DNA from: Myxococcota bacterium
Lineage (GTDB): Bacteria > Myxococcota > XYA12-FULL-58-9 > JALHOP01
Direction: 5' to 3'
DNA length: 47,397 nt
NCBI GenBank assembly: GCA_022842935.1
Contig: JALHOP010000023.1
Coordinates: forward strand, 1-47,397
The notes under the pieces are model-generated. The model saw only the letters and a program-made list of their open reading frames with translations. It did no database searches and was not told where the DNA came from. Below, in pieces: positions 248 to 12,863 of this stretch (position 1 is its first letter; every line of letters begins with the position of its first letter). A program made the translations under genes and the position numbers.

Positions 248-1108
248 TCACGCTTTCTGCCAAAGCAGATGCAGCTCACCGTTGTCGCCTGGACCGACCG
301 CAAAGAACCAAACCTTCTCGAAGCGATGGTCGCGCCCGTCGAGGAGCGCTTTCGCCCGAGCCTGGCCCGTCCCAAACAGCCCGCTCACTCCCATCTCGTA
401 GATCAACAACCACAGCTTGCCGCCGTACCCGCCATAGTGTTTGTCCAGCTTCACTTTTACGGCGTCGGGCAACGCCGCGTCGACGTCGATACCTGTCATG
501 TTGATGCCGCTACTGAACCGCATTCTGAATGGCACCTCGGGCGCCGCGACCCGCGTTACAGTGGGCCAGAGCTGAATCTTGCTGACATCGTCGGTGATCA
601 ACTCTTCAACGCGGCTGTCGCGAGTTGGCTCTAGCTTCGCAAAGTGTCCAATGTGATCTCGCAGCCACGTCTCGAGCAGCTTGAGCACGGCTTGTCCCTC
701 CTTGCTTTTCAAAGCTGGCAGCACGGCGCAGCTCTCCCACAAGTTCAAGTAAAGGCCAGCGAGGCGATCCGCGACGTCGTCGATCGCGTTGAGGAGTGCG
801 GTTGTGAACAGCTCCCGTTGACGTCTGACGATCATCTCGTGCGCCAGTACAGATTCGACGACTTCGACACCTAGTTTGCTGTCATCGAGTTTCCCCTCGA
901 GGTCTGGCCAATCATTGTGCTGATCTTTCTTCTTCAGCTCTGTGACGATTCCCTTGGCTACAAGAGCCTTTTGAAACTTTGCTACTACCCAGGTTTCAAG
1001 CTCGCCTGGGTCCGTGGGAGGCGTTTCGATGACCGTCGCCACCGAGCCGTCTGCCCCGTAGACGACATAACCAGCCTTCTTGCTCGGCTTCTTCGGTCGC
1101 TTTGTCAC
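248..1108 (-). CDS. Hypothetical protein, 286 aa. Last gene of the integrase-linked cassette. No recognisable motif.
   Basis: Long ORF in the lower-GC island, same strand as and 60 nt downstream of the HTH-fusion gene. Lys-rich N-terminus (MTKRPKKPSKK). Flanked by 21-bp direct repeats. Confidence 0.6.
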   Translation of the reverse strand: MTKRPKKPSKKAGYVVYGADGSVATVIETPPTDPGELETWVVAKFQKALVAKGIVTELKKKDQHNDWPDLEGKLDDSKLGVEVVESVLAHEMIVRRQRELFTTALLNAIDDVADRLAGLYLNLWESCAVLPALKSKEGQAVLKLLETWLRDHIGHFAKLEPTRDSRVEELITDDVSKIQLWPTVTRVAAPEVPFRMRFSSGINMTGIDVDAALPDAVKVKLDKHYGGYGGKLWLLIYEMGVSGLFGTGQARAKALLDGRDHRFEKVWFFAVGPGDNGELHLLWQKA

Positions 1109-1134
1109 TCTACACCTCTCAAACGAGCCCCCGA

Positions 1135-1155
1135 GGCCAGCTTGGATTGGGCGCG
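1135..1155. repeat. 21-bp direct repeat copy 2 (GGCCAGCTTGGATTGGGCGCG), in the intergenic region between the 652-aa and 286-aa genes
   Basis: Read directly from the sequence. It pairs with 204-224. Confidence 0.8.
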
Positions 1156-1168
1156 ATCCGCGGGTCTG

Positions 1169-3127
1169 CTATAGCAATCTGCGCGTGTAGAACGTGGTGA
1201 AGCTATTCGCGATTAGGGTGTGGCGCGAGATGACGCGCATCGTGGACCGCGTACTCTTCTCAATGAGTCGGTAGTTGTCGTGGTCGATGACGATCTCCGA
1301 CTCGAGTTCGTTACGCACCAAGGCCCGGACGAGTCTCGCGCACGAGTCAATGGAACGGACCACGAGGATCCCGTTCAGAACCCCGGTGCTGAGAATCACC
1401 TGCAGCGCCAGGGGATGTTGCTCGCGGAAGAGGTGTGCGCGCTTTTCGAAGTTAACTGCGACCGCAACGAGGATGCCGACCAAGTGAGGGCGTACGTCAG
1501 TAGGAACCGCAGACGGAGCTTCGCCCTTCACCACCTTATCCAACCAGCTGCGATAGTTTGATCGCTCGGACTCCTCAGGAATCCGCGATGCCTCTCCGTA
1601 GAGATCAAAGTCGGCCCAATGCGCCACCGTTGCTTGCGCGAGCGTCGCATCGCTCGCTTTGCTCAAGCGGATAGTCAGCAGACGTGACAGCAGAGCCTGC
1701 TGATCCATGGTCTCGTCCGCCTCCCGATCCTCCTCTGTCCCTTCCTTTGAGATCTGAGTTTGCAGGTCAACGCGGGACAAGAGCCCCAGCGACTCTGTAT
1801 CGACATTCGCGTCCGGGGCGAACAAGCGCGGGACGTAGACGATCACAGGCTTGCCTTGTCCCAACGCCACCGAGGCTTCGGAATCCTTGCCAAAGGTGTC
1901 GGTCTTTTGCGCCATGTACAGTGTCATGGCGGATCGACGAAGCATCAGCGCCTCGACCAAGCCCTTGGCTACTCGATCTTCAATCCACGACTGCGTTGGG
2001 TTGAAGTACCTGAGCTTCAGAGGGCGAACGTCAGAGTGCTCGAATAGCGCGCGGCAGAAGGCGTTGACCGAAACGAAGTCTGCGTCCGAGCGCATTGACG
2101 TGGCCACGTAAACGTCAAGGTGGTCGGCGGCTAGGTAGCGCGCCAGATTGCGCTGTGCAGTTTCCTGCGTATCTGCCATCCGGGTGAGGTCGGACTCCTC
2201 TTTGGGGGCGAGTCGTACCGCTTCGCGTCTTAGCGCATCGGTGTCCTTTGAGAAGAGCGGGGACAAGAAGTCGTGCGGCAGGCTTGAATTGAACTTTCGC
2301 AACAAGCTGGCCATCTTGCGTTTCCGCTTCTCGGTGAACCGCGACAAACCGGTTCCTTTCTCCTTATCTAACGCGTCGGCGACCTCGACCAAGAACGCCG
2401 CAAGCAGACGTCGCTCATCGGATTCCTGCCTCGCCTTCTGCGCAGATATGTAGCCCAAGTCGGGGAGTCGCTCGTCAGCGATGGTTTCGATCCCATCCCA
2501 ATTGCTTCGCGACCGAAACGCCTCATCATCCTTGGATTGAAGGGGTGCCAACATTGCCCGGAGGTCTTCCGCTTGATTGAGCGTGCGGTAGGCGTCCTCA
2601 AAGGTGCTGAATAGGCGGATCACCTCGGCCTGGTACTTTCGCACCTGCTTGTTGAAATCCGCTGGTGACCGAAGAGCGTCTGGTCCGAGATATCTGGCAA
2701 AGAACTCGGACGAACACGGTTCCACGTCGTAGTAGACGAGCACGGAATTGAAGGCGTCGTAAGCCTGGTCCTCAGTGCGGTCGATTCGCGACAGGTTTAG
2801 AACCTCAGCCTTCGCCACGTCTGCGGTCGGCTCGTCGTGGTAGCGTAGGGATACCGGTCGACCAACGAGTTCGCCCAAAGCCTCCTCGAACGCCAGCTGG
2901 GTCTGGTACTCCGCGTCGAGGAAGTCCTTCCAGAACTTCGGCGGAATGCCCAGATACTCGCAGACTGCGGTCAGAACATCTGGCGTTGGGACTCGGCGAC
3001 CCTGCTCGAGATGCGCGACGACCGAACGATTCGTACTGGCCGCTTTCGCGACGGCGTCCTGCGAATCACCGCGTTGCTCGCGAGCCGCCTTTACCTGCTC
3101 GCCTAGATCCTGCAGGTGCACCGCCAT
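1169..3127 (-). CDS. Fusion protein, 652 aa: N-terminal XRE-family helix-turn-helix plus a central Rossmann-like nucleoside 2-deoxyribosyltransferase-like (NDT/SLOG-type) domain and a C-terminal region of unknown function
   Basis: Residues ~10-65 (QDAVAKAASTNRSVVAHLEQGRRVPTPDVLTAVCEYLGIP) are a typical XRE HTH. Residues ~330-440 contain VYVATSMRSDADF ... TDTFGKDSEASVALGQGKPVIVYVP. This resembles the NDT signature D-x-G-x-x-E-x-G-x-A-x-x-x-GK-x-V (Lactobacillus NDT ...ELGYALSQGKYVLLVIP, recalled from memory). Lower GC than the backbone. Confidence 0.6.
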   Translation of the reverse strand: MAVHLQDLGEQVKAAREQRGDSQDAVAKAASTNRSVVAHLEQGRRVPTPDVLTAVCEYLGIPPKFWKDFLDAEYQTQLAFEEALGELVGRPVSLRYHDEPTADVAKAEVLNLSRIDRTEDQAYDAFNSVLVYYDVEPCSSEFFARYLGPDALRSPADFNKQVRKYQAEVIRLFSTFEDAYRTLNQAEDLRAMLAPLQSKDDEAFRSRSNWDGIETIADERLPDLGYISAQKARQESDERRLLAAFLVEVADALDKEKGTGLSRFTEKRKRKMASLLRKFNSSLPHDFLSPLFSKDTDALRREAVRLAPKEESDLTRMADTQETAQRNLARYLAADHLDVYVATSMRSDADFVSVNAFCRALFEHSDVRPLKLRYFNPTQSWIEDRVAKGLVEALMLRRSAMTLYMAQKTDTFGKDSEASVALGQGKPVIVYVPRLFAPDANVDTESLGLLSRVDLQTQISKEGTEEDREADETMDQQALLSRLLTIRLSKASDATLAQATVAHWADFDLYGEASRIPEESERSNYRSWLDKVVKGEAPSAVPTDVRPHLVGILVAVAVNFEKRAHLFREQHPLALQVILSTGVLNGILVVRSIDSCARLVRALVRNELESEIVIDHDNYRLIEKSTRSTMRVISRHTLIANSFTTFYTRRLL

Positions 3128-3256
3128 TGCGTACCTCCGAGTTTGGAGACGCGATCACATCAAAATACACCCGGCCGTCAAGAAGTAGCGCCGCCGTGAT
3201 GAGGACATTGCCAATGCGGCCGCCCGGAGACGGCCGACTAGACTAGTAGCTTGTCG

Positions 3257-3955
3257 TCAGGGCTGCGGGCGCGGCAGTGCGGCGGGACGTTCTGGGCGTG
3301 CGGGACGAGGGTATTCCCCGTTGAGCACCTTGCGAGTTCGTTCGTCGATCAGCCGTTGAATCTCAGCGAGCTCCGCTTTGAACTTCTCGCTACCCAGGTA
3401 GGAAGCATCCGTCACGACGAGCAAACGCTCGTCGAGCGTTGATGCGGCCGCCATAAAGGCGGAAGCGTTGTAAGTGACCGCGTCGTGAAAGGCTTTGACG
3501 GAAGGAATGTACGCTTTGGACAAATCGTAGTTCTGCTGCAACGCGAGCTGGTCGTAGCTGCTTCTAAGGGTCTCAGTGATCGCGCCTGCGTGTAGGTACT
3601 CTTGCGTGAGCGCAATTGTGGCGGCGTCGAGTAGGTCAGTCGCCGTTTCGTCAGCGAGTGCGGTGTAGAGCAGGTTGAAGAACAACCCTTCCGCGGTCAC
3701 CTCACGCACGCTGGTGGAGAGTTCTAGATCTCGAATCTTGGTGGCGCGCTCTAGGTTGTAGTGAACCTCCCATCTCGCAAGCTCTAGTTTCCGAATGGCG
3801 CGTTCACGAGCGTCTCTGGCGGTCTGCTGATGGGTGCGCTCCCAGACGTCTGCGGCTTGGACCTTGCCGGCCGCATAACCAACCGTCAGACCAACCATGG
3901 TGACCAAAAGTTGCACCACGATAGCGGGCCAGTTTTCCGACAGATATTTCCGCAC
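3257..3955 (-). CDS. Membrane-anchored protein, 232 aa: one N-terminal transmembrane helix followed by a helical soluble domain. First gene of the cassette after the integrase.
   Basis: GTG start. Hydrophobic stretch WPAIVVQLLVTMVGLTVGYAAG at residues 9-30. Pro/Arg-rich C-terminal tail. Same strand as the integrase and the HTH fusion. Confidence 0.5.
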   Translation of the reverse strand: MRKYLSENWPAIVVQLLVTMVGLTVGYAAGKVQAADVWERTHQQTARDARERAIRKLELARWEVHYNLERATKIRDLELSTSVREVTAEGLFFNLLYTALADETATDLLDAATIALTQEYLHAGAITETLRSSYDQLALQQNYDLSKAYIPSVKAFHDAVTYNASAFMAAASTLDERLLVVTDASYLGSEKFKAELAEIQRLIDERTRKVLNGEYPRPARPERPAALPRPQP

Positions 3956-3967
3956 GAGGTTGGTCTT

Positions 3968-3981
3968 CTGGGCGCGCGCCC
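3968..3981. promoter_or_regulatory. Perfect 14-bp palindrome TGGGCGCGCGCCCA, 13 nt upstream of the membrane-protein gene start. Candidate operator.
   Basis: Read from the sequence. Its half-site TTGGGCGCG is shared with the 21-bp direct repeats at 204-224 and 1135-1155. Confidence 0.3.
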
Positions 3982-4040
3982 AATGTGTTTTTGTACGACA
4001 CCGTATCTACCACGCCTTCTTGCCCCCCGCCGCTCCGCCA

Positions 4041-5381
4041 TTACTCCCCCCGCACCCGCCGGAATGCAGCGATCACGGCATTTTGCAGCGTTTTGTAGAA
4101 CTCCGGACGCGTGGCGCGGCTCGCAACGTCTGGCGGTAGCGTGGCGCGGGCAGTTGCCCAGGCTTCCTCTGGCGGTAGGTCAATGCGCAACCAGCCGGGC
4201 CGTTCTTCGACTGCCGCGATGCCTTCCAGCCGGACCGTCGCCTCTTTCGTGATGAGGAGGGCGTGCGCGACCCGAGTCGGGCCGTCGCTCGCGCCGAAGA
4301 CGACGCGCAGACGAGCCGTTGGGTTGGCGGTGGGATGCGCGGAAGCCTGTGCTGCTGAGCCCCCAGGGTCGAGCGCGTCGAGTGGACTCTGCGGGTCGGA
4401 GCGAGTCGTCGTGATGTGTGTGTAGAGACGCGTCGTCTCGAGATTGGCGTGGCCGAGAAAGTCTTGGATGAGACGGAGGTCCGTACCGCCTTCCAGCAAA
4501 TGCGTTGCGAATGAGTGGCGTAGCGAATGGCACGTGACGTTCGCGCGTAGGCCAGCGAGCTCGGCGGCGCGCCGGAACATGCGTTGAGCGGTGCGCGGCG
4601 ACAGGTGGCGGCGGTCGTTGGCGCTCGAGGGGAAAAGGAAACTCTCCGGGGTGGCGGCGGTGCGCAGAGCCAGCAGCCAGCGCTTCCACTTCGTTGGCAT
4701 CAGCGCGCGGCGGTCTTTTGCGCCCTTGCCTCTGAAAACCCGAATGCTGCCCGACTCGAAGTCGAGATCGCGCCAGCGGACGCGGCACATCTCGCCGACG
4801 CGCATGCCGGTCGCGTACAACAGCCCCAGCAGCAGCTTGTCGCGCCGCGCCGGCGCCGCAGCAAGCAAGCGCAGGATCTCGTCGCGGCTCATCACCGTCG
4901 GTAACGACCGCGCGCGTCGCGGTGTGACGAGACCGGTTGTCGCTGTGAGACAGCACATCTTGTCGAACACGGTGCGGAGCATCGAGAGGTTACTTGCGAC
5001 CCATGATGCGCTCGCGCCAGCATCCACGAGGAACTCGAGATACTCGCGCACCAGCTCGCGGTTTGTCTCGGAGGCCGGTGCTTGCGACCAGCGCAGGAAC
5101 TGCATCAGCGCACCCAGGTACGTCTTCACGGAGCGCCGGCTGTAGAAGCGGATGCGCAGCTCGCGCCGGATCTTGCGCACGAACATGCTCGACGAAACAT
5201 TTGCCCGCGTCAGGTCCACGACCGCATGCGATGGGCCGAGCGCGTCATCGAATGGTCGGCGCGGTCCGAACCGGCCGCGCGCGATCCGGTAGACACGACC
5301 ATCGTTATAGGTGTGCGAGTCGATGCGGCGGCCCACGCGACGCTCGAGTGCCAACCCCGTGCCAACGGATGACCAGGCCAA
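4041..5381 (-). mobile_element. Tyrosine site-specific recombinase (phage-integrase / XerD-like family), 446 aa, with N- and C-terminal extensions
   Basis: Catalytic region HSLRHSFATHLLEGGTDLRLIQDFLGHANLETTRLYTHI with the R...HxxR...Y signature. Core-binding-like N-domain (RRSVKTYLGALMQFLRW). About 65 extra residues after the catalytic Tyr. Confidence 0.9.
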
Positions 5382-5891
5382 GAGGCGTTGGCGGGTCTCG
5401 ACAGCTGTCTACTGGCGTGCGTGTAGCAACATGAGACACGAATCTAGCGCGGGACTGCTCGCTCAGGGCTTGTTCGGCGGCAGCGGCTTGAGCTTATCGA
5501 GCTCGGTGGCCATTTCCTCGAGCGCCGCCGCGCGACCGCTTGCGAGCGCGTCGACACCGTCTTCGCGAGCGAGGTTGCGACCGGCCCAGTGAGAGGACCT
5601 CGGCGGCCCGTGACTGACAAAGCGCTTCCATCAACGCAAGCGTCTGACACTGGACAGGGCCTTGTGTTTCCTATGCACCGACACGCTCGTCGAAATCGAC
5701 CGCGAAGCGCTGGCGTCGATCCTCGGATGTCAAAGGCGCTCCCGCCTTCCGCGTCCAGGGACGGGAAGGCCTGTTCGCCGGTTTGCACGAGGGGTGTCGC
5801 GGGCGGCCGAGCACGACAGCTGGGTGACGTTGAAGAAGCGGGACTGAGCCGGTCACCAAAGACCACGTCGATCAGTCCCGCGCTTCAGTTT

Positions 5892-8765
5892 CTATTCAGC
5901 TGCGCTCGCCCACCCGAATGGTAGACATGTATAGGTCACCTCTTGACCAGGCTTCGCGGCGATCGCGCGGATCTCCGCGTCATCGAGCACCGAGCCGCCA
6001 TCGTCGGGCTCGAAGAAGCCATCGGGCTGCAGCTTGTAGGTGCGCGCGCGACCTTCGGTGACGAAGCGTGCGACGAGGTCGCACTCGCGCGCTCCGGCGC
6101 CCAGCACCTTCGATACGAACGGCGTCTTGGCACGCGCGACCAGCAAGTCGATGCGTGGCCCAACGCTCGCGGCGTTGTCAGCGCGCAGGGTGACCTGCTG
6201 ACCAACGACCGGTGCCAAGTCAGTGTCGAAAGCGAGCAAGTATTGCTCGACGTCACGTCGCTGGGGGTCGCCGCCGGTGAAGCCCACCCGGCCGTCGTAC
6301 GTCGGGTTGAAGACGACCTGCTGCAAGAACCGAAACAGCGTATCGGTACTGCCGTCGAAGGCGTATCCGGTACCGCGGACCTGGGCGCCCTGATAGCCGT
6401 TGTCGCCGAGGTTGATGTGGTCGACGGCCGGCGAGCCGAACATGCCAACCTTGTGGACCATGTTCCGCAATTGCGGAATCTTGAAGGTCTGCGGTAGCGC
6501 TTCGAAGCTCGATTGACCGTCGGTCCCGAAGAAGCCCTTCGCAGGGTCGAGGGTGTGGCAACCCTGGCAGGTGAAGCCAAACCCGGCGATGGGTAGACCG
6601 TCGGAGAAATGGCCAAGCCCGGTCGCGATGGGCTCGTTGGGCGAGCAGCGCGCAACGTTTCCAGAGACGCTCGGGGTGCCGGCGCATCCCAGATAAAACT
6701 GGCGGCCACGCTCCTGACTTGCGTTCAAGCCATTGTCCAGCGCGCGCACCGGGTTCGGTGGCATGACGACCGAAAGCGTGAACGCCGTGAATGCTTGCAT
6801 CGCCTCGCGCGGCAGAGGCTCGGCGCGCCCAAGCAAGTCCTGAAAGGCGCCGATGAAGTTGTTGAACGACAGCTCGGCGTCATACGGGGGCGCCTTGCTC
6901 GTGTCCGTGCCGAAAGCGCCCGAAACCCGGTCGCCACGCCAGTGCATGGGACCGTGATTTACTAGACCGCGCAGCGTTTGCGTGGTCAGCGGCCCCTTCA
7001 TGGGATGCAGGGCGTCCACTTCGCCGGTCCCGTTGATGGTGGGTTCTGCGCCGAGCCCGAGGCGCACGGGCACGGGGCTTATCACCACCTCCCCGTCTGG
7101 ATTGCCGAGGTCCCAAGCCAGGTGGTCGTCATCGGCGAATATATGGCAGCTCGCGCACGCAGCTTCGCCGTTCGAAGACAGGCGCCCGTCGTAGAGCGCT
7201 GGTCGGCCGGTGGTCACCACACCCGGCTCAGGGTTTGCGAGGGTGCGATGGCCGCTTTCTTTTGCCGTTGCGAGGTCGATCACGGAGACGCCGTTGTCGA
7301 AGCGCGTCGCGACATACAGGCGTTGTCGTCCGCTATCAAGGACAACACCCGATGGGCCGCCGCCCGAGACGTCCAGGTAGCCGGCACTCGCAACGCGTGG
7401 ATCGAAGCTGTCGTTCTCGAGCGCTGCAGTCGATAGCACTCCGACTTTTGCCGAGCCGAATCCCGCGACGTAGAGCGTCGCGCCATCGGGGCTGACCACG
7501 ACCTCGAGGGGCGTCGACAAGCTGTGGCTGGCAGTGTCCGTGGGCGCCGGCAGGACGTCGTAGGCGATGTGCTTGTTGAGGTGACGCGGGCGCACGCTCG
7601 CCCCGTCGACGACGGTGATGCGCGATTCGGCGAGGTGACCTTGCAGGGTGGTGGCCGCGTACGTGCCCGGCCCTTCGAAGCGCAGGTCGTTGCGCGCCTC
7701 GGTGTTCGAGACATACACCACGCCGGTTACGGGGTTCACGGCGACGTTGAAGAGTGTCGTGCCAAGGCCCGCGTATGTCGCGACCGTCGCGAGATTGCCG
7801 GTGTCGATCGCGAAGAGGTCTTGGTCGGGGAGGTCGAAGGTCGCGGCCGCGGTCCAGTCGCGTCCCAACACGTCCCGCCAGACGCCATCGTTGCCGGTCT
7901 TGAGGATGACCGCGACTGGAGGTGCGGGAACGCCGTCGTGACTGGTCGCAGGGCCGGGCGGAGCACCAGGGACCTCGATGCCCAGCTTGACGCATGTCGA
8001 GGTCACTCCTGGGCCATCGAAACCGGCGCACGGTAGTGTCGGGGGCGTCACCGTGGTGCGGTTCCCCGACTTGAAGACGGCCACGTAGACCCGAGCACCG
8101 TCTGGCGAGACCGCGAGACCACGTGGGGAATCGCCGAAAAACGAAAGGATGCGCAGCGGTGTGCCGCCGAGCGTGTCGCCGAGGTTGTCGCCATCGAAGA
8201 CCCAGACGTCGGCACGCCCGATGCCTGGTGTCGTCAATAGCGGATCGCCGGCGCCGGGCACGTTTGCGATCGACGGGTCGGAGCGATGCTGGCCGCGATG
8301 CGCCGTGCTGATGAATGCGCGCCGACCCTCGGGGCCAGCGAACACAATGTCTTGTGGCTCGTCGCCCACCAGCAAGGTTCGCACCACACGTGGCGGGCTT
8401 GTCGTCGTGTCCACCACGCTGACGCTATCGGAGAGGTGATTGACCACCCACACTTCGCCGTTGGCGCGCGCTGCGACAGCCACGGGCTCGAGGCCGACGT
8501 GCGTCGAGCTCACGAGCGTTAAGCCGTCAGCACTCACGTCGAGCACGTCGAGCGTGGCGTTGGGTGTGTTCGCGACGAAGAGTCGGCTACCGTCAGCGGA
8601 CAGGGCGAGAGGGCGGACAGGGCCGCTTTCGAAGGTAAAGGTGGGTGTAAGTGTGCTCGACGTCGGTGTCACCACTGGCAAGTCGACCGGGTCCTTGTCG
8701 TCCGAACAGGCGCTGGAACAACAAACGAGTGCAATGAGCAGCGGTGTGGTCGTGGATATTTTCAT
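5892..8765 (-). CDS. Secreted lipoprotein: YVTN-type beta-propeller fused to a di-haem cytochrome c peroxidase / MauG-like domain
   Basis: Start at the internal Met (MKISTTTPLLIALVCCSSACS, lipoprotein-like signal). Two CXXCH haem-binding motifs (ACASCH and CQGCH) in the C-terminal half. Repeated LYVA/VSVID propeller blades in the N-terminal half. Confidence 0.7.
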   Translation of the reverse strand: MKISTTTPLLIALVCCSSACSDDKDPVDLPVVTPTSSTLTPTFTFESGPVRPLALSADGSRLFVANTPNATLDVLDVSADGLTLVSSTHVGLEPVAVAARANGEVWVVNHLSDSVSVVDTTTSPPRVVRTLLVGDEPQDIVFAGPEGRRAFISTAHRGQHRSDPSIANVPGAGDPLLTTPGIGRADVWVFDGDNLGDTLGGTPLRILSFFGDSPRGLAVSPDGARVYVAVFKSGNRTTVTPPTLPCAGFDGPGVTSTCVKLGIEVPGAPPGPATSHDGVPAPPVAVILKTGNDGVWRDVLGRDWTAAATFDLPDQDLFAIDTGNLATVATYAGLGTTLFNVAVNPVTGVVYVSNTEARNDLRFEGPGTYAATTLQGHLAESRITVVDGASVRPRHLNKHIAYDVLPAPTDTASHSLSTPLEVVVSPDGATLYVAGFGSAKVGVLSTAALENDSFDPRVASAGYLDVSGGGPSGVVLDSGRQRLYVATRFDNGVSVIDLATAKESGHRTLANPEPGVVTTGRPALYDGRLSSNGEAACASCHIFADDDHLAWDLGNPDGEVVISPVPVRLGLGAEPTINGTGEVDALHPMKGPLTTQTLRGLVNHGPMHWRGDRVSGAFGTDTSKAPPYDAELSFNNFIGAFQDLLGRAEPLPREAMQAFTAFTLSVVMPPNPVRALDNGLNASQERGRQFYLGCAGTPSVSGNVARCSPNEPIATGLGHFSDGLPIAGFGFTCQGCHTLDPAKGFFGTDGQSSFEALPQTFKIPQLRNMVHKVGMFGSPAVDHINLGDNGYQGAQVRGTGYAFDGSTDTLFRFLQQVVFNPTYDGRVGFTGGDPQRRDVEQYLLAFDTDLAPVVGQQVTLRADNAASVGPRIDLLVARAKTPFVSKVLGAGARECDLVARFVTEGRARTYKLQPDGFFEPDDGGSVLDDAEIRAIAAKPGQEVTYTCLPFGWASAAE

Positions 8766-9035
8766 GGGAAGGCCGCCAAGAACTTTCTCATCACTGTTGA
8801 ACACCGGCGAGGCCAATTCGTTGCACCCAATTCGGCTGGGACCGCATGCGAGGCTCTGTCGAAGACTGGCGTGCCACACAGAAGCGCGGATCACGGCGCT
8901 GCACCGAGAAGCGCGGCGCGCCCGAGTCGTGACCGCGGGTCATGGCTCGAGCAAGCGCGCGAGGAAGGCGCGAACGACCCGCGGGACGCCGATAGGGCTT
9001 GCCAGGCCGAGTGCTTCGGGAGACGACCGAGCACC

Positions 9036-9375: not shown

Positions 9376-10368
9376 TCAGACGCTTGTCGAAGACGCGCCC
9401 GGCATGTGCGAGTGGGCGTGATAGCTGCTCCGCACCAGCGGACCACTCTCGACGTGCTTGAAGCCGCGCTTCAAACCCTCTTCCTTCAGGAAGCGGAACT
9501 CGTCGGGCGTGTAGAAGCGCGCGATGGGGGCGTGCTTCTTGGTTGGGTTCAGATATTGGCCCAGCGTGAGCACGTCGCATTCGACCTGGCGCAGATCATC
9601 CATCACCAGAAGCAGCTCGTCGATGGTCTCGCCCAAGCCAACGATGACACCTGTCTTCGTGGTCATCGCCACCGGCTTGCCGCTGCCGTTGTCGCCCTTG
9701 CGATAGGCGTCCGCGCGAGCGAGCAGCTCGAGGCAACGCGCATAGATACCCTTTGAGCGCATCGCCTTGTAGAGGCGGGGAACGGTTTCGGTGTTGTGGT
9801 TCAACACCTCGGGCCGCGCGTCGAGAACCTTACGCAGAGAGGCGTGGTCACCCATGAAGTCAGGGATGAGGACTTCGATTTTGGTGCCCGGCTTGCGCTC
9901 ACGAATGGCGTTGATGGTGTCGACGAAGTGATAGGCGCCGTAGTCGGGCAGGTCGTCGCGGTCGACGCTGGTGAGGACCGCGTGGGTGATGCCCAAGCGT
10001 GCCACGGCCTCGGCGACATTCGCGGGCTCTTGTGGATCGGGCAGGTTCTTTGGCCGACCGCTGATGACGCTGCAGTAGCGGCAATTGCGCGTGCAGACCT
10101 CGCCCAAGATCATGAAGGTCGCGGTCTTGTGCTGGCCCCAGCACTCCCAGATGTTCGGACAGCGCGCCTCTTCGCAGACGGTATTGAGCTTCAGGTCGCC
10201 GAGGAGCTTTTTGACGTCGTTGTAGGTCTCGGTGTTCTGGACCTTGATGCGCATCCACGGGGGTCTGCGAGCACCGGCCCCTTCGCGGGCAACAGGAGTG
10301 ACGGGGGTGTCTTTGGTTGCTACGTCGGTCACGCGTGCATTCCTGCTACGTCGGAACGCACATGGCAA
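9376..10368 (-). CDS. lipA: Lipoyl synthase
   Basis: CEEARCPNIWEC and CTRNCRYCSV cysteine clusters (both 4Fe-4S sites). The start may instead be the internal Met at 10254. Confidence 0.9.
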   Translation of the reverse strand: MPCAFRRSRNARVTDVATKDTPVTPVAREGAGARRPPWMRIKVQNTETYNDVKKLLGDLKLNTVCEEARCPNIWECWGQHKTATFMILGEVCTRNCRYCSVISGRPKNLPDPQEPANVAEAVARLGITHAVLTSVDRDDLPDYGAYHFVDTINAIRERKPGTKIEVLIPDFMGDHASLRKVLDARPEVLNHNTETVPRLYKAMRSKGIYARCLELLARADAYRKGDNGSGKPVAMTTKTGVIVGLGETIDELLLVMDDLRQVECDVLTLGQYLNPTKKHAPIARFYTPDEFRFLKEEGLKRGFKHVESGPLVRSSYHAHSHMPGASSTSV

Positions 10369-11381: not shown

Positions 11382-12863
11382 TCAGAGCTCCGATTCGTCG
11401 AACTCTTCGATGTTCTTCTTCACCTTGGCCATGAAGTTGTCGGCCACGGCGCCGTCGATGAGACGGTGATCGAAGCTGAGCGACAAATAGGCGCGGGTGC
11501 GAATTGCGATCGCGTCGTTGATGACGACCGGACGCTTCTCGATGTTGGCGACGCCCATGATGGCGACTTGCGGCTGATTGATGATCGGCAAACTGATCAT
11601 CGGACCGATCTGGCCAGGGTTCGTCACGGTGAACGTACCACCGCTGATCTCGTCGGGCATCAGCTTGCGGTTACGCGCCCGCGTCGCAAGATCGACGCTG
11701 CGCCGAGCAAGACCTAGCAGATTGAGCTCGTCGGCGGAGTGGATGACCGGCACGATAAGGCCCCAGTCGAGAGCCACTGCGATGCCGAGGTTGATGCTGC
11801 GGTGATAGATGACGTTGGTGCCATCGAGACTCGCGTTGAGCACCGGGAAGCCCTTGAGAGCATCGACCACGGCCTTCAGCACGAAGCCGTTGTAGGTCAG
11901 GTTGACGCCATGACGCTCTTCCCACAACGCTTTGTGCTTGGCGCGCAGCTGCGCGACCTTGGTGAAGTCGATGTCCCAGACCGTGTTCACATGAGCGGAC
12001 ACGCGGCGTGACACCACCATGTGCTCGGCGATTTTGGCGCGCATGTTCGAGAGCGGCTCGACGCGGTCACCCTCGAAGACGCGTCCACGATAAGCGTCCG
12101 GCACGGGTGCACGCACGTCATAGACATTGCCGCCGCCAGCCGATGGGGCACCTTGCGCCGGTAGCAGTTGCGACTGCGGCGCGCCCTTCGTCGCGACGCC
12201 CGCTGAGGTGCTAGCGGCGCGCTGCGCTTGTGGCGCCTGCTGCTGCGGCCCGCGCTCCATGTAGCCCATGATGTCGTCTTTGGTGACGCGGCCCGACATC
12301 CCAGAGCCCTCGATCTGCGTGATGTCGATGTCGTTCTCGGCGGCGATCTTGCGCACTAGCGGCGAGCTCTTGGTCTTGCGGCGCTCCTCGTCGCTGACGC
12401 CGTTGGTGGCGTGCACGGCCTTCGGTGGCTCAGCCTTCGGAGCCTCGGCCTTCGGCGGTCGGGTATCTGCCTTCGGCGGCTCGGCTTTCGGTTGTTCGAC
12501 CTTCGGGGCAGCGGCCTTCGGAGCCTCGGCCTTCGGTGCCTCCGCTTTAGCGGCGCCGGCGCCCTTCTCTCCCGCCTCGCCGATCACGGCGACGACGCTA
12601 TTGACCGCGACGGTCGCCCCGTTCTGCGCCTTGATCTCGAGCAGCACGCCCGCCGCTGGTGACGGGATCTCGGCGTCGACTTTGTCGGTCGAAATCTCGA
12701 ACAACGGCTCGTCGCGGTTGACGGTATCGCCAACCTTCTTGAGCCAGTTGGTGATGGTTCCTTCGGCGATAGATTCGCCCATCTGAGGCATGATGACGTC
12801 GGTTGCCACGGTCAGATCTCCCTGGTGGTTCAGCGCGCGCGTCCTACCAGGGATCGCGCCCAA
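11382..12863 (-). CDS. 2-oxo acid dehydrogenase E2 component (dihydrolipoyllysine-residue acyltransferase), single lipoyl domain
   Basis: Lipoyl domain IMPQMGESIAEGTI...EISTDKVDAEIPSPAAGVL. Ala/Pro/Lys linker. Catalytic DHRLIDGA motif near the C-terminus. Confidence 0.85.
   Translation of the reverse strand: MGAIPGRTRALNHQGDLTVATDVIMPQMGESIAEGTITNWLKKVGDTVNRDEPLFEISTDKVDAEIPSPAAGVLLEIKAQNGATVAVNSVVAVIGEAGEKGAGAAKAEAPKAEAPKAAAPKVEQPKAEPPKADTRPPKAEAPKAEPPKAVHATNGVSDEERRKTKSSPLVRKIAAENDIDITQIEGSGMSGRVTKDDIMGYMERGPQQQAPQAQRAASTSAGVATKGAPQSQLLPAQGAPSAGGGNVYDVRAPVPDAYRGRVFEGDRVEPLSNMRAKIAEHMVVSRRVSAHVNTVWDIDFTKVAQLRAKHKALWEERHGVNLTYNGFVLKAVVDALKGFPVLNASLDGTNVIYHRSINLGIAVALDWGLIVPVIHSADELNLLGLARRSVDLATRARNRKLMPDEISGGTFTVTNPGQIGPMISLPIINQPQVAIMGVANIEKRPVVINDAIAIRTRAYLSLSFDHRLIDGAVADNFMAKVKKNIEEFDESEL
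12416..12548. repeat. Imperfect ~15-bp tandem repeats (GCCTTCGGNGNCTCN) encoding the AEAPK-type flexible linker of E2
   Basis: Repeated gccttcgg cores visible in the sequence. They translate to KAEAPKAEAPKAAAPK... Confidence 0.6.

Follow-up and report, generated by a model that had tools for sequence, protein, structure and literature searches.

A lower-GC patch on a Myxococcota contig carries one conserved gene that joins an XRE-type helix-turn-helix to a predicted nucleoside deoxyribosyltransferase-like domain

Nucleoside deoxyribosyltransferases (NDT/PTD) and the other members of their superfamily, such as DNPH1/Rcl, MilB/BlsM and YtoQ, have a three-layer alpha/beta fold, and the NDT enzymes are oligomers of about 150-170 amino acids (aa). 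In retron Ec86 (Eco1), an NDT-like domain is joined to a nucleic-acid-binding part and serves as an immune effector, which has been reported to deplete adenine derivatives (10.1101/2023.08.16.553469). The controller (C) proteins, which belong with the XRE-type helix-turn-helix (HTH) regulators, are stand-alone dimers of about 80 aa. Here we describe a gene whose product unites both kinds of domain: a 652-aa protein encoded on the minus strand of a 47,397-nucleotide stretch of DNA from a Myxococcota bacterium (contig JALHOP010000023.1 of assembly GCA_022842935.1), hereafter called the window, which is the entire contig. The HTH and the NDT-like domain are set in a chain of ~650 aa, together with a helical domain of ~260 aa and a C-terminal domain of ~210 aa. 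A preliminary description of this DNA had taken positions 248-5381 for an integrase-linked island with a three-gene cassette, possibly a defence system. We find instead that the region holds one conserved gene and two orphan open reading frames (ORFs) and is not a three-gene system. The reading we favour, to which we give an even chance, is that of a mosaic, foreign patch of lower guanine-plus-cytosine (GC) content beside a resident Xer/IntI-like recombinase, carrying a single conserved and autonomous HTH- and NDT-like gene of N-glycosidase type for which a role in conflict or defence is plausible. The parts of the gene and its upstream region are the following:

1169-3127, minus strand: 652-aa gene comprising XRE HTH, helical domain, NDT-like domain and C-terminal domain, as delimited from the AlphaFold model and homologues
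3128-3256, minus strand: spacer 5' of the 652-aa gene, with a ribosome-binding site (RBS) and a promoter-like stretch; kept in a second contig, L088
2933-3109, minus strand: XRE/Cro-C1-type HTH, residues 7-65 (HTH_31)
2138-2932, minus strand: all-helical domain, residues ~66-330, from the AlphaFold secondary structure
1808-2125, minus strand: NDT-like Rossmannoid domain, residues ~335-440, with the motifs DVYVATSMR (beta1 loop) and DTFGKDSEASVALGQGKPV
1877-1879, minus strand: codon of E417, the candidate catalytic Glu, from its invariance and its hhalign register with Lactobacillus NDT
1172-1807, minus strand: C-terminal helical and small alpha/beta region, residues 441-652, with the invariant motif HPLxLQ...GVxNGxxVxR

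A search with the 652-aa protein gave 641 matches at E<=0.001 among 8,000 scored candidates. Among the 120 matches listed, identity to the query was 51-69% over 88-100% of its length; most were full length (~650 aa), as members of the family vary very little in length, and they came from Myxococcota, Acidobacteriota and Gammaproteobacteria. A scan of 185,579 species, each represented by a single genome, returned 109 stretches confirmed by tblastn and added Verrucomicrobiota, Bacteroidota, Sericytochromatia, Planctomycetota, Campylobacterota and others, giving the family a patchy spread over more than ten phylum-level lineages. The core of the protein (residues 310-652) fell into 603 clusters at 50% identity in an exhaustive search of 1.84 billion representatives. 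A neighbour-joining protein tree of the family was discordant with taxonomy, which argues for horizontal transfer. All named members are annotated solely as 'HTH domain-containing protein'; beyond its HTH the family is described by none of Pfam, NCBIfam, PADLOC and PHROGs, and literature searches found no description of it or of 8xMP, a small membrane protein that accompanies it in some clades.

The AlphaFold model of the protein (predicted local distance difference test score 89, predicted template modelling score 0.82) showed a five-helix HTH fold at residues 7-65, where the preliminary description had correctly seen an XRE HTH; the PF01381/PF13560 profile matched this segment above its curated cutoff (HTH_31, E=2e-13). 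This HTH is an ordinary member of its family. The N-terminal 60 residues match C.BclI, C.AhdI, HipB and CapH in sequence and structure, and the restriction-modification controllers C.BclI and C.AhdI are among the closest solved relatives. Unlike the C proteins, this HTH forms part of a large, enzyme-like protein, and relatives may lack it or have another domain in its place. Outside the HTH, no Pfam or NCBIfam match was obtained at E<=1, and both PHROGs and PADLOC (v2 models, 2023, which cover Thoeris, CBASS, RosmerTA, PsyrTA, ShosTA, retrons and others) matched the HTH only, the PADLOC matches being HTH_VI, RmrA (residues 8-77) and CapH; the earlier statement that the architecture fits no known defence system is borne out by this check. 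Foldseek against the PDB likewise matched the HTH alone, as did the HTH-bearing family profile (A1) against PDB sequences. The helical domain gave only weak PlcR/ComR-type matches and residues 441-652 matched no known fold.

For the central alpha/beta domain of the model, the best structural matches outside the HTH were NDT enzymes, and further matches included YtoQ (8.6), MilB (8.3) and LOG/MoCo-carrier proteins (9.2 and 8.3). The domain is predicted to have the NDT-type Rossmannoid, three-layer alpha/beta fold. Its DSE/GKP motif is invariant throughout the family, and E417 was invariant in 65/65 and 16/16 aligned sequences. When compared by hhalign with a sequence taken to be that of Lactobacillus NDT, TLYMAQKTDTFGKDSEASVALGQGKPVIVYVP was aligned to GVYIPDEEDVGLGMELGYALSQGKYVLLVIP at a probability of 10.6%, which puts E417 on the catalytic Glu of GMELGY. 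In this low-probability register an invariant Glu stands after a Gly-containing loop and before a GKP-hydrophobic strand, like the NDT catalytic segment. The beta1 loop, Y-x-A-T-S-M-R, resembles the phosphate loop of DNPH1, Y-F-C-G-S-I-R. The central domain is NDT-like by fold and motif register and is a member by no curated profile; what had been proposed as an NDT/SLOG-like domain thus stands as regards its predicted fold and the invariance of the DSE/GKP motif, but not as regards formal family membership by sequence. Following the precedent of NDT, DNPH1, MilB and the retron Ec86 effector, the domain would bind a nucleotide and cleave its N-glycosidic bond via E417, and the T-S-M-R loop may hold the 5'-phosphate.

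The family comes in two forms, one bearing the HTH (~650 aa) and one lacking it (450-600 aa), the latter clade being apparently the more diverse in the 50% clustering. At 28-37% identity, the HTH-less relatives retain DVYVATSMR, RYFDPTQ, DKGLVEALMLKR, DTFGKDSE, AQGKPV, HPLxLQ and GVANGVLVVR, and their tblastn coverage shows that the helical domain is mostly kept, from about residue 100 on. The HTH is therefore accessory to a conserved three-part core. One HTH-less relative of 695 aa (P0208; locus L089, 6001-8088), a solitary gene on a forest-soil metagenome contig, carries an N-terminal TIR_2 domain (E=1e-15). In the window, the 652-aa gene is preceded by the RBS GGAGG, 7 nucleotides 5' of its ATG, and the spacer 3128-3256 contains a promoter-like TTGACG...TGTGAT read by eye; since a consensus promoter scan found nothing, this promoter is a candidate one. 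The HTH might repress its own promoter, probably from the conserved upstream region, or might tether the enzyme to DNA.

The gene neighbourhoods of the family were surveyed by calling ORFs in 78 related loci and clustering all those that lay no more than 5 kb from the family gene. No general conserved neighbour was found in these loci. A D12 Dam-type methyltransferase lay within this distance in 12/78 loci, directly adjacent in 8 and co-stranded with the family gene, upstream or downstream of it, in 10 of the 12; PADLOC classed the linked enzymes as type II or orphan methyltransferases. In a Pyrinomonadaceae context sampled from precomputed Pfam annotation, a methyltransferase is followed by the family gene at a distance of 60 bp. 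A gene for the small membrane protein 8xMP (Pfam) follows the family gene in 8/78 loci. In four of them its start overlaps the stop codon of the family gene: the overlap is 4 bp in L020, L055 and L058, and 13 bp in L063. The order methyltransferase, family gene, 8xMP occurs as apparent operons in L011 (8013-11416, with a 33-bp gap between family gene and 8xMP), L020 (9013-12420) and L058 (9175-12422); in L058 the family gene appears as two ORFs of 329 and 304 aa, a sign of a possible frameshift or pseudogene. The Pfam families that recurred among the 129 directly adjacent ORFs were MethyltransfD12 (8), 8xMP (5), thymidylate kinase (3) and dCTP-deaminase-like proteins (2). In L015 (9492-12915) and L026 (9980-13355), a 170-aa restriction endonuclease-like ORF (MIKGGxGGxxTQTGLxFE...) stands beside the D12 methyltransferase and the family gene, which suggests that endonuclease and methyltransferase form a conventional type II restriction-modification pair and that the family gene lies next to this pair or between its members. 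On the neighbour-joining tree the methyltransferase linkage is clade-specific: in a clade of Bacteroidota, Acidobacteriota and Campylobacterota it is found in most members and in a second clade in half of them, with zero linkage in the Myxococcota clade of the window. The window itself has a gene for neither a D12 methyltransferase nor 8xMP.

Two loci, L085 and L086, are textbook integrons. In L085 (7180-13105) a true IntI with its extra domain diverges from an array of four co-oriented ORFs of 301, 654, 146 and 75 aa, a layout found in both loci, of which the 654-aa ORF is the family member. It forms the second cassette of L085, a very large one at ~2.3 kb, and is flanked by attC sites of ~140 bp (~9706-9846 and 11963-12109) with R'' GCCTAAC and R' GTTAGGC/GTTAGAC. 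On the opposite side of intI, L085 has a gene for a HerA-like ATPase. As the family gene travels here as a single integron cassette, it is functionally self-contained. Together with the absence of a conserved neighbour in the 78 loci, the lineages in which the gene is solitary, and its own RBS and conserved upstream region, this cassette establishes the autonomy of the 652-aa gene.

The remaining features of the region are the following:

4041-5381, minus strand: tyrosine recombinase ORF, 446 aa (PF00589), with a C-terminal extension of ~100 aa
3257-3955, minus strand: 232-aa ORF with a single N-terminal hydrophobic helix; an orphan and a mosaic, with codons ~139-231 common to L088
2903-3540, minus strand: stretch common to L088 (blastn, 96.2% nucleotide identity), with a break at 3540
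1124-1158, unstranded: direct repeat D1, copy B, starting 11 nucleotides 3' of the stop codon of the 652-aa gene
248-1108, minus strand: 286-aa orphan ORF between the two D1 copies, with a GAGG-type RBS and a coding-like GC pattern
193-227, unstranded: direct repeat D1, copy A, starting 21 nucleotides 3' of the stop codon of the 286-aa ORF

The four co-directional minus-strand ORFs that the preliminary description had placed within 248-5381 were all found there, and it had rightly recognised a tyrosine recombinase, an N-terminal hydrophobic segment in the 232-aa protein, described there as a transmembrane (TM) anchor, and the lack of motifs in the 286-aa protein. The lower GC content is also real, at 58.5% over 400-4000 against 64.0% in the remainder of the window, where the lowest other 3.6-kb stretch reached 61.1% (mean 64.1%, standard deviation 0.8%), but it had been overstated as 50-58% against a backbone of ~68%. 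The three low-GC ORFs (232, 652 and 286 aa) showed coding-like GC at the first, second and third codon positions, with third-position values of 0.67-0.72; backbone genes mostly had 0.77-0.85 at that position, two of them going down to 0.69-0.73. Since the recombinase gene has a backbone-like GC content of 66.3%, it lies outside the low-GC segment. A tyrosine recombinase was moreover found near the family gene in just 4/78 loci, window included, and the proposed linkage to an integrase is not supported. The window is the entire contig and extends 247 bases past the last ORF, which leaves the island's far end out of view.

The proposal of a three-gene cassette failed because both partners are orphans, no neighbour is conserved and the nearest relative of the locus is interrupted within the 232-aa ORF. 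This ORF has one strong hydrophobic segment (residues ~11-29, mean Kyte-Doolittle value 1.96) and is no 8xMP protein by Pfam. Neither it nor the 286-aa ORF matched a family in Pfam, NCBIfam, PADLOC or PHROGs, and neither had a relative among all ORFs of 80 related loci (phmmer, E<=1). The 286-aa ORF matched only itself among 5.8 billion proteins. The 232-aa ORF had no protein-search match at all, and its 90% cluster contained one further entry, a 94-aa fragment on the ENA contig L088 with 95% identity to residues 139-231. By blastn, L088 1905-2537 corresponds to window 3540-2903 at 96.2% nucleotide identity, and the match extends to the end of the L088 contig. The shared stretch takes in the last third of the 232-aa ORF, the intergenic spacer and codons 1-75 of the 652-aa gene (75/75 residues identical). 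Homology breaks off sharply at window 3540 (L088 1905), at codon ~139 of the 232-aa ORF; none of the remaining 1.9 kb of L088 occurs in the window, and 5' of the break L088 carries an RND efflux gene and no recombinase. The putative TM partner is therefore not intact even in the nearest relative. The 652-aa gene was thus found at 96% nucleotide identity in two differing contexts, a comparison in which L088 has a coverage of just 1.2x and may be a chimeric contig; as judged from the alignment, the 652-aa gene and ~410 bp of sequence 5' of it are common to the window and L088.

The recombinase is an ordinary member of its family. It matched Pfam Phage_integrase (PF00589) with 143.9 bits (cutoff 27.1; E=5e-42) as well as an N-terminal SAM-like domain, and its catalytic-residue motifs are readable as GMRVGE, GKGAKDR, HSLRHSF, LGHANL and RLYTH. 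Its best NCBIfam matches, XerA (196.8 bits, cutoff 220) and the TIGR02249 integron integrase (188.9 bits, cutoff 265), were both below cutoff, the TIGR02249 match coming in two stretches with the middle missing; PADLOC gave no match for the recombinase. The protein has an IntI-like C-terminal SPLDAL motif; in a side-by-side reading it lacks the insertion of ~40 aa before the HxxR box that the IntI of L007 has. About 65 N-terminal residues precede the SAM-like domain and the C-terminal extension (residues ~340-446) matched no family. No RBS was seen at the TTG start, hence the true start codon is uncertain. The direct repeat D1, GGCCA(T/G)CTTGGATTGGGCGCG, is 35 nucleotides long and occurs at 193-227 and 1124-1158 (2 matches against 0 expected), one copy shortly 3' of the 286-aa ORF and the other shortly 3' of the 652-aa gene, so that the pair brackets the 286-aa ORF. 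Its arms can be read as an imperfect palindrome around an 8-nucleotide spacer, which would resemble a recombinase core site. D1 was found in none of the 80 related loci and is absent at the 3540 break; as it occurs in no related locus, it is not a family-associated element. No attC-like sites (palindromes of R'' RYYYAAC and R' GTTRRRY) were seen in the window spacers on direct reading, for which L085 served as positive control. An integron reading of the window was rejected for want of the IntI insertion and of attC sites.

Four other accounts of the locus were considered beside the favoured one. The 652-aa protein could be a one-component regulator whose NDT/SLOG-like domain merely senses a nucleotide or nucleoside and whose HTH controls its targets, with a housekeeping or metabolic function and none in immunity. 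We regard this as unlikely. The HTH-less clade keeps the whole core, so that the core can function without DNA binding; invariant acidic and Ser/Arg residues would, in the low-probability NDT register, occupy catalytic or phosphate-binding positions, and the TIR fusion, the capture as an integron cassette, the pairing with methyltransferase and membrane protein and a tree that cuts across taxonomy also speak against a mere sensor. A restriction-like function, in which the family would be the 'R' partner of a Dam-type methyltransferase, with a controller-type HTH and an NDT-fold glycosidase acting on unmethylated DNA or its nucleotides, and in which the window would hold a solitary R gene, would explain why D12 methyltransferases adjoin the family gene in several phyla, mostly co-stranded and in variable order, why pairing with them is seen in the majority of one clade and in half of a second, and why the HTH is nearest to C.BclI and C.AhdI. 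We nevertheless consider it quite improbable: ~85% of the loci, among them the window and all of its clade, lack a nearby methyltransferase, no D12 methyltransferase adjoins the window gene as a type II restriction-modification system would call for, and the restriction endonuclease-like ORF in two methyltransferase loci allows that the family gene merely neighbours an ordinary restriction-modification system. To our knowledge, moreover, no DNA glycosylase with an NDT fold has been described.

The two accounts that give the neighbouring ORFs a part fare less well. An integron-like cassette array, in which the recombinase takes up cassettes, promoterless or self-contained, on its downstream side, D1 copies are the recombination sites and the three ORFs are independent cassettes, draws on the recombinase's best scores against the XerA and integron-integrase models and its SPLDAL motif, on its position upstream of co-oriented ORFs of lower GC content, two of them orphans, on the exact bracketing of the 286-aa ORF by a direct repeat of 21-35 nucleotides, and on the genuine cassette in L085. 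It is very improbable, as the recombinase lacks the IntI insertion and stays below all curated cutoffs, no attC-like palindrome with R''/R' cores is present, one spacer measures just 60 bp, and D1 occurs only twice, missing at the 3540 break and in the related loci. A three-component, integrase-mobilised defence system formed by the TM protein, the HTH-NDT protein and the 286-aa protein would account for three tightly packed, co-directional ORFs with a common lower GC content, and other clades do have a different small membrane protein, 8xMP, after the family gene. This idea is largely refuted and keeps only the slightest chance, with no homologue for either partner, the 232-aa ORF cut by a break in the only near-identical relative and not an 8xMP protein, no conserved neighbour in the survey and a recombinase of backbone GC content.

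Returning to the favoured account of an autonomous N-glycosidase-type gene in a foreign patch, the hints of a conflict role come from the discordance of tree and taxonomy, the links to methyltransferases and 8xMP, the TIR-bearing relative, the thymidylate-kinase and dCTP-deaminase-like neighbours, the low-GC patch, the occurrence in two contexts at 96% identity, and the reported depletion of adenine derivatives by the NDT-like effector of retron Ec86. They make a conflict or defence role of the family plausible, which the gene would fulfil as a self-contained single-gene module, joined in other clades by a Dam-type methyltransferase, a small membrane protein or both. The likeness to retron Ec86 has its limits: that system needs a reverse transcriptase and multicopy single-stranded DNA, whereas here an Rfam scan of the window gave no match, no reverse transcriptase was seen in genes adjacent to the family gene in the 78 loci, and no PADLOC hit was obtained. 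As for the SLOG/LOG and TIR domains of Thoeris and CBASS, the window protein has no SLOG or TIR profile match, and the genes adjacent to the family gene showed no cyclase, ThsB or SMODS partner. A more specific version, in which the protein is a self-contained immune enzyme, an NDT-fold N-glycosidase gated by its fused controller-type HTH, with a Dam methyltransferase for self-protection and 8xMP as second effector in some clades, is clearly unlikely in our view; its targets would be the nucleotide pool, phage-specific modified nucleotides or bases excised from DNA.

Several observations weigh against the favoured account. On the side of the enzyme, the 652-aa protein belongs to neither PF05014 nor its relatives by sequence profile, the profile of the HTH-less core (A2) matched nothing among PDB sequences at E<=10, the HTH-less relatives matched no NDT, SLOG or TIR Pfam family, the hhalign register with Lactobacillus NDT is of the low probability given above, and hhalign against DNPH1 produced no meaningful alignment. 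On the side of defence, no PADLOC defence-system model matched beyond the HTH, the family was not found in 2.9 million viral contigs or 72,556 plasmids, and the backbone beside the island encodes the housekeeping proteins LipA, LipB, 2-oxoacid dehydrogenase E2 and GyrA and is no defence island. Stable housekeeping contexts were also seen where the family gene was sampled in loci with precomputed Pfam annotation: the Hyalangium homologue (69% identity) stands alone among metabolic genes, a marine deltaproteobacterial lineage has an identical housekeeping context on 24/24 contigs, and the Gallaecimonas homologue is alone among housekeeping genes. The preliminary description had named conserved single-copy chromosomal homologues as evidence against its proposal, and several lineages do keep a single copy among housekeeping genes, which bears out that objection in part.

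As for the rest of the window, it contains no tRNA or tmRNA genes, and a tRNA-linked island reading was dropped; promoter and terminator scans gave no more than chance. A 16-nucleotide inverted repeat (94% complementary; 5446-5461 and 5869-5884) surrounds a 407-bp stretch between the start of the recombinase and the stop of a 1000-aa gene, and may mark the edge of the island or the remains of a small mobile element. The 1000-aa protein, which is encoded on the minus strand (5892-8894) and adjoins the recombinase, has weak lactonase/beta-propeller matches and two CxxCH motifs, CASCH and CQGCH, that suggest a di-haem domain. An AT skew of -0.36 to -0.49 at 12201-12800, within the 2-oxoacid dehydrogenase E2 gene, probably marks an Ala/Pro-rich linker region.

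With the HTH and the recombinase accounted for as ordinary proteins, the remaining interest of the locus is a single-gene family, a predicted Rossmannoid nucleotide-processing enzyme in a mobile and possibly immune context, and the telling pattern is its association with an integron cassette, Dam methyltransferases, small membrane proteins and a TIR fusion. A defence role, if any, concerns the single gene, or the methyltransferase-paired gene of other clades, and not the trio of the window. If the protein turned out to regulate genes in response to nucleotides, XRE regulators would gain a new sensor domain; under the more specific version of an immune enzyme gated by its HTH, it would represent a restriction-like system built on a glycosidase of a fold so far unused for this purpose. 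If it is an immune N-glycosidase, the family would add a single-gene, nucleotide-targeting defence and might also add a glycosidase-based, restriction-like module.

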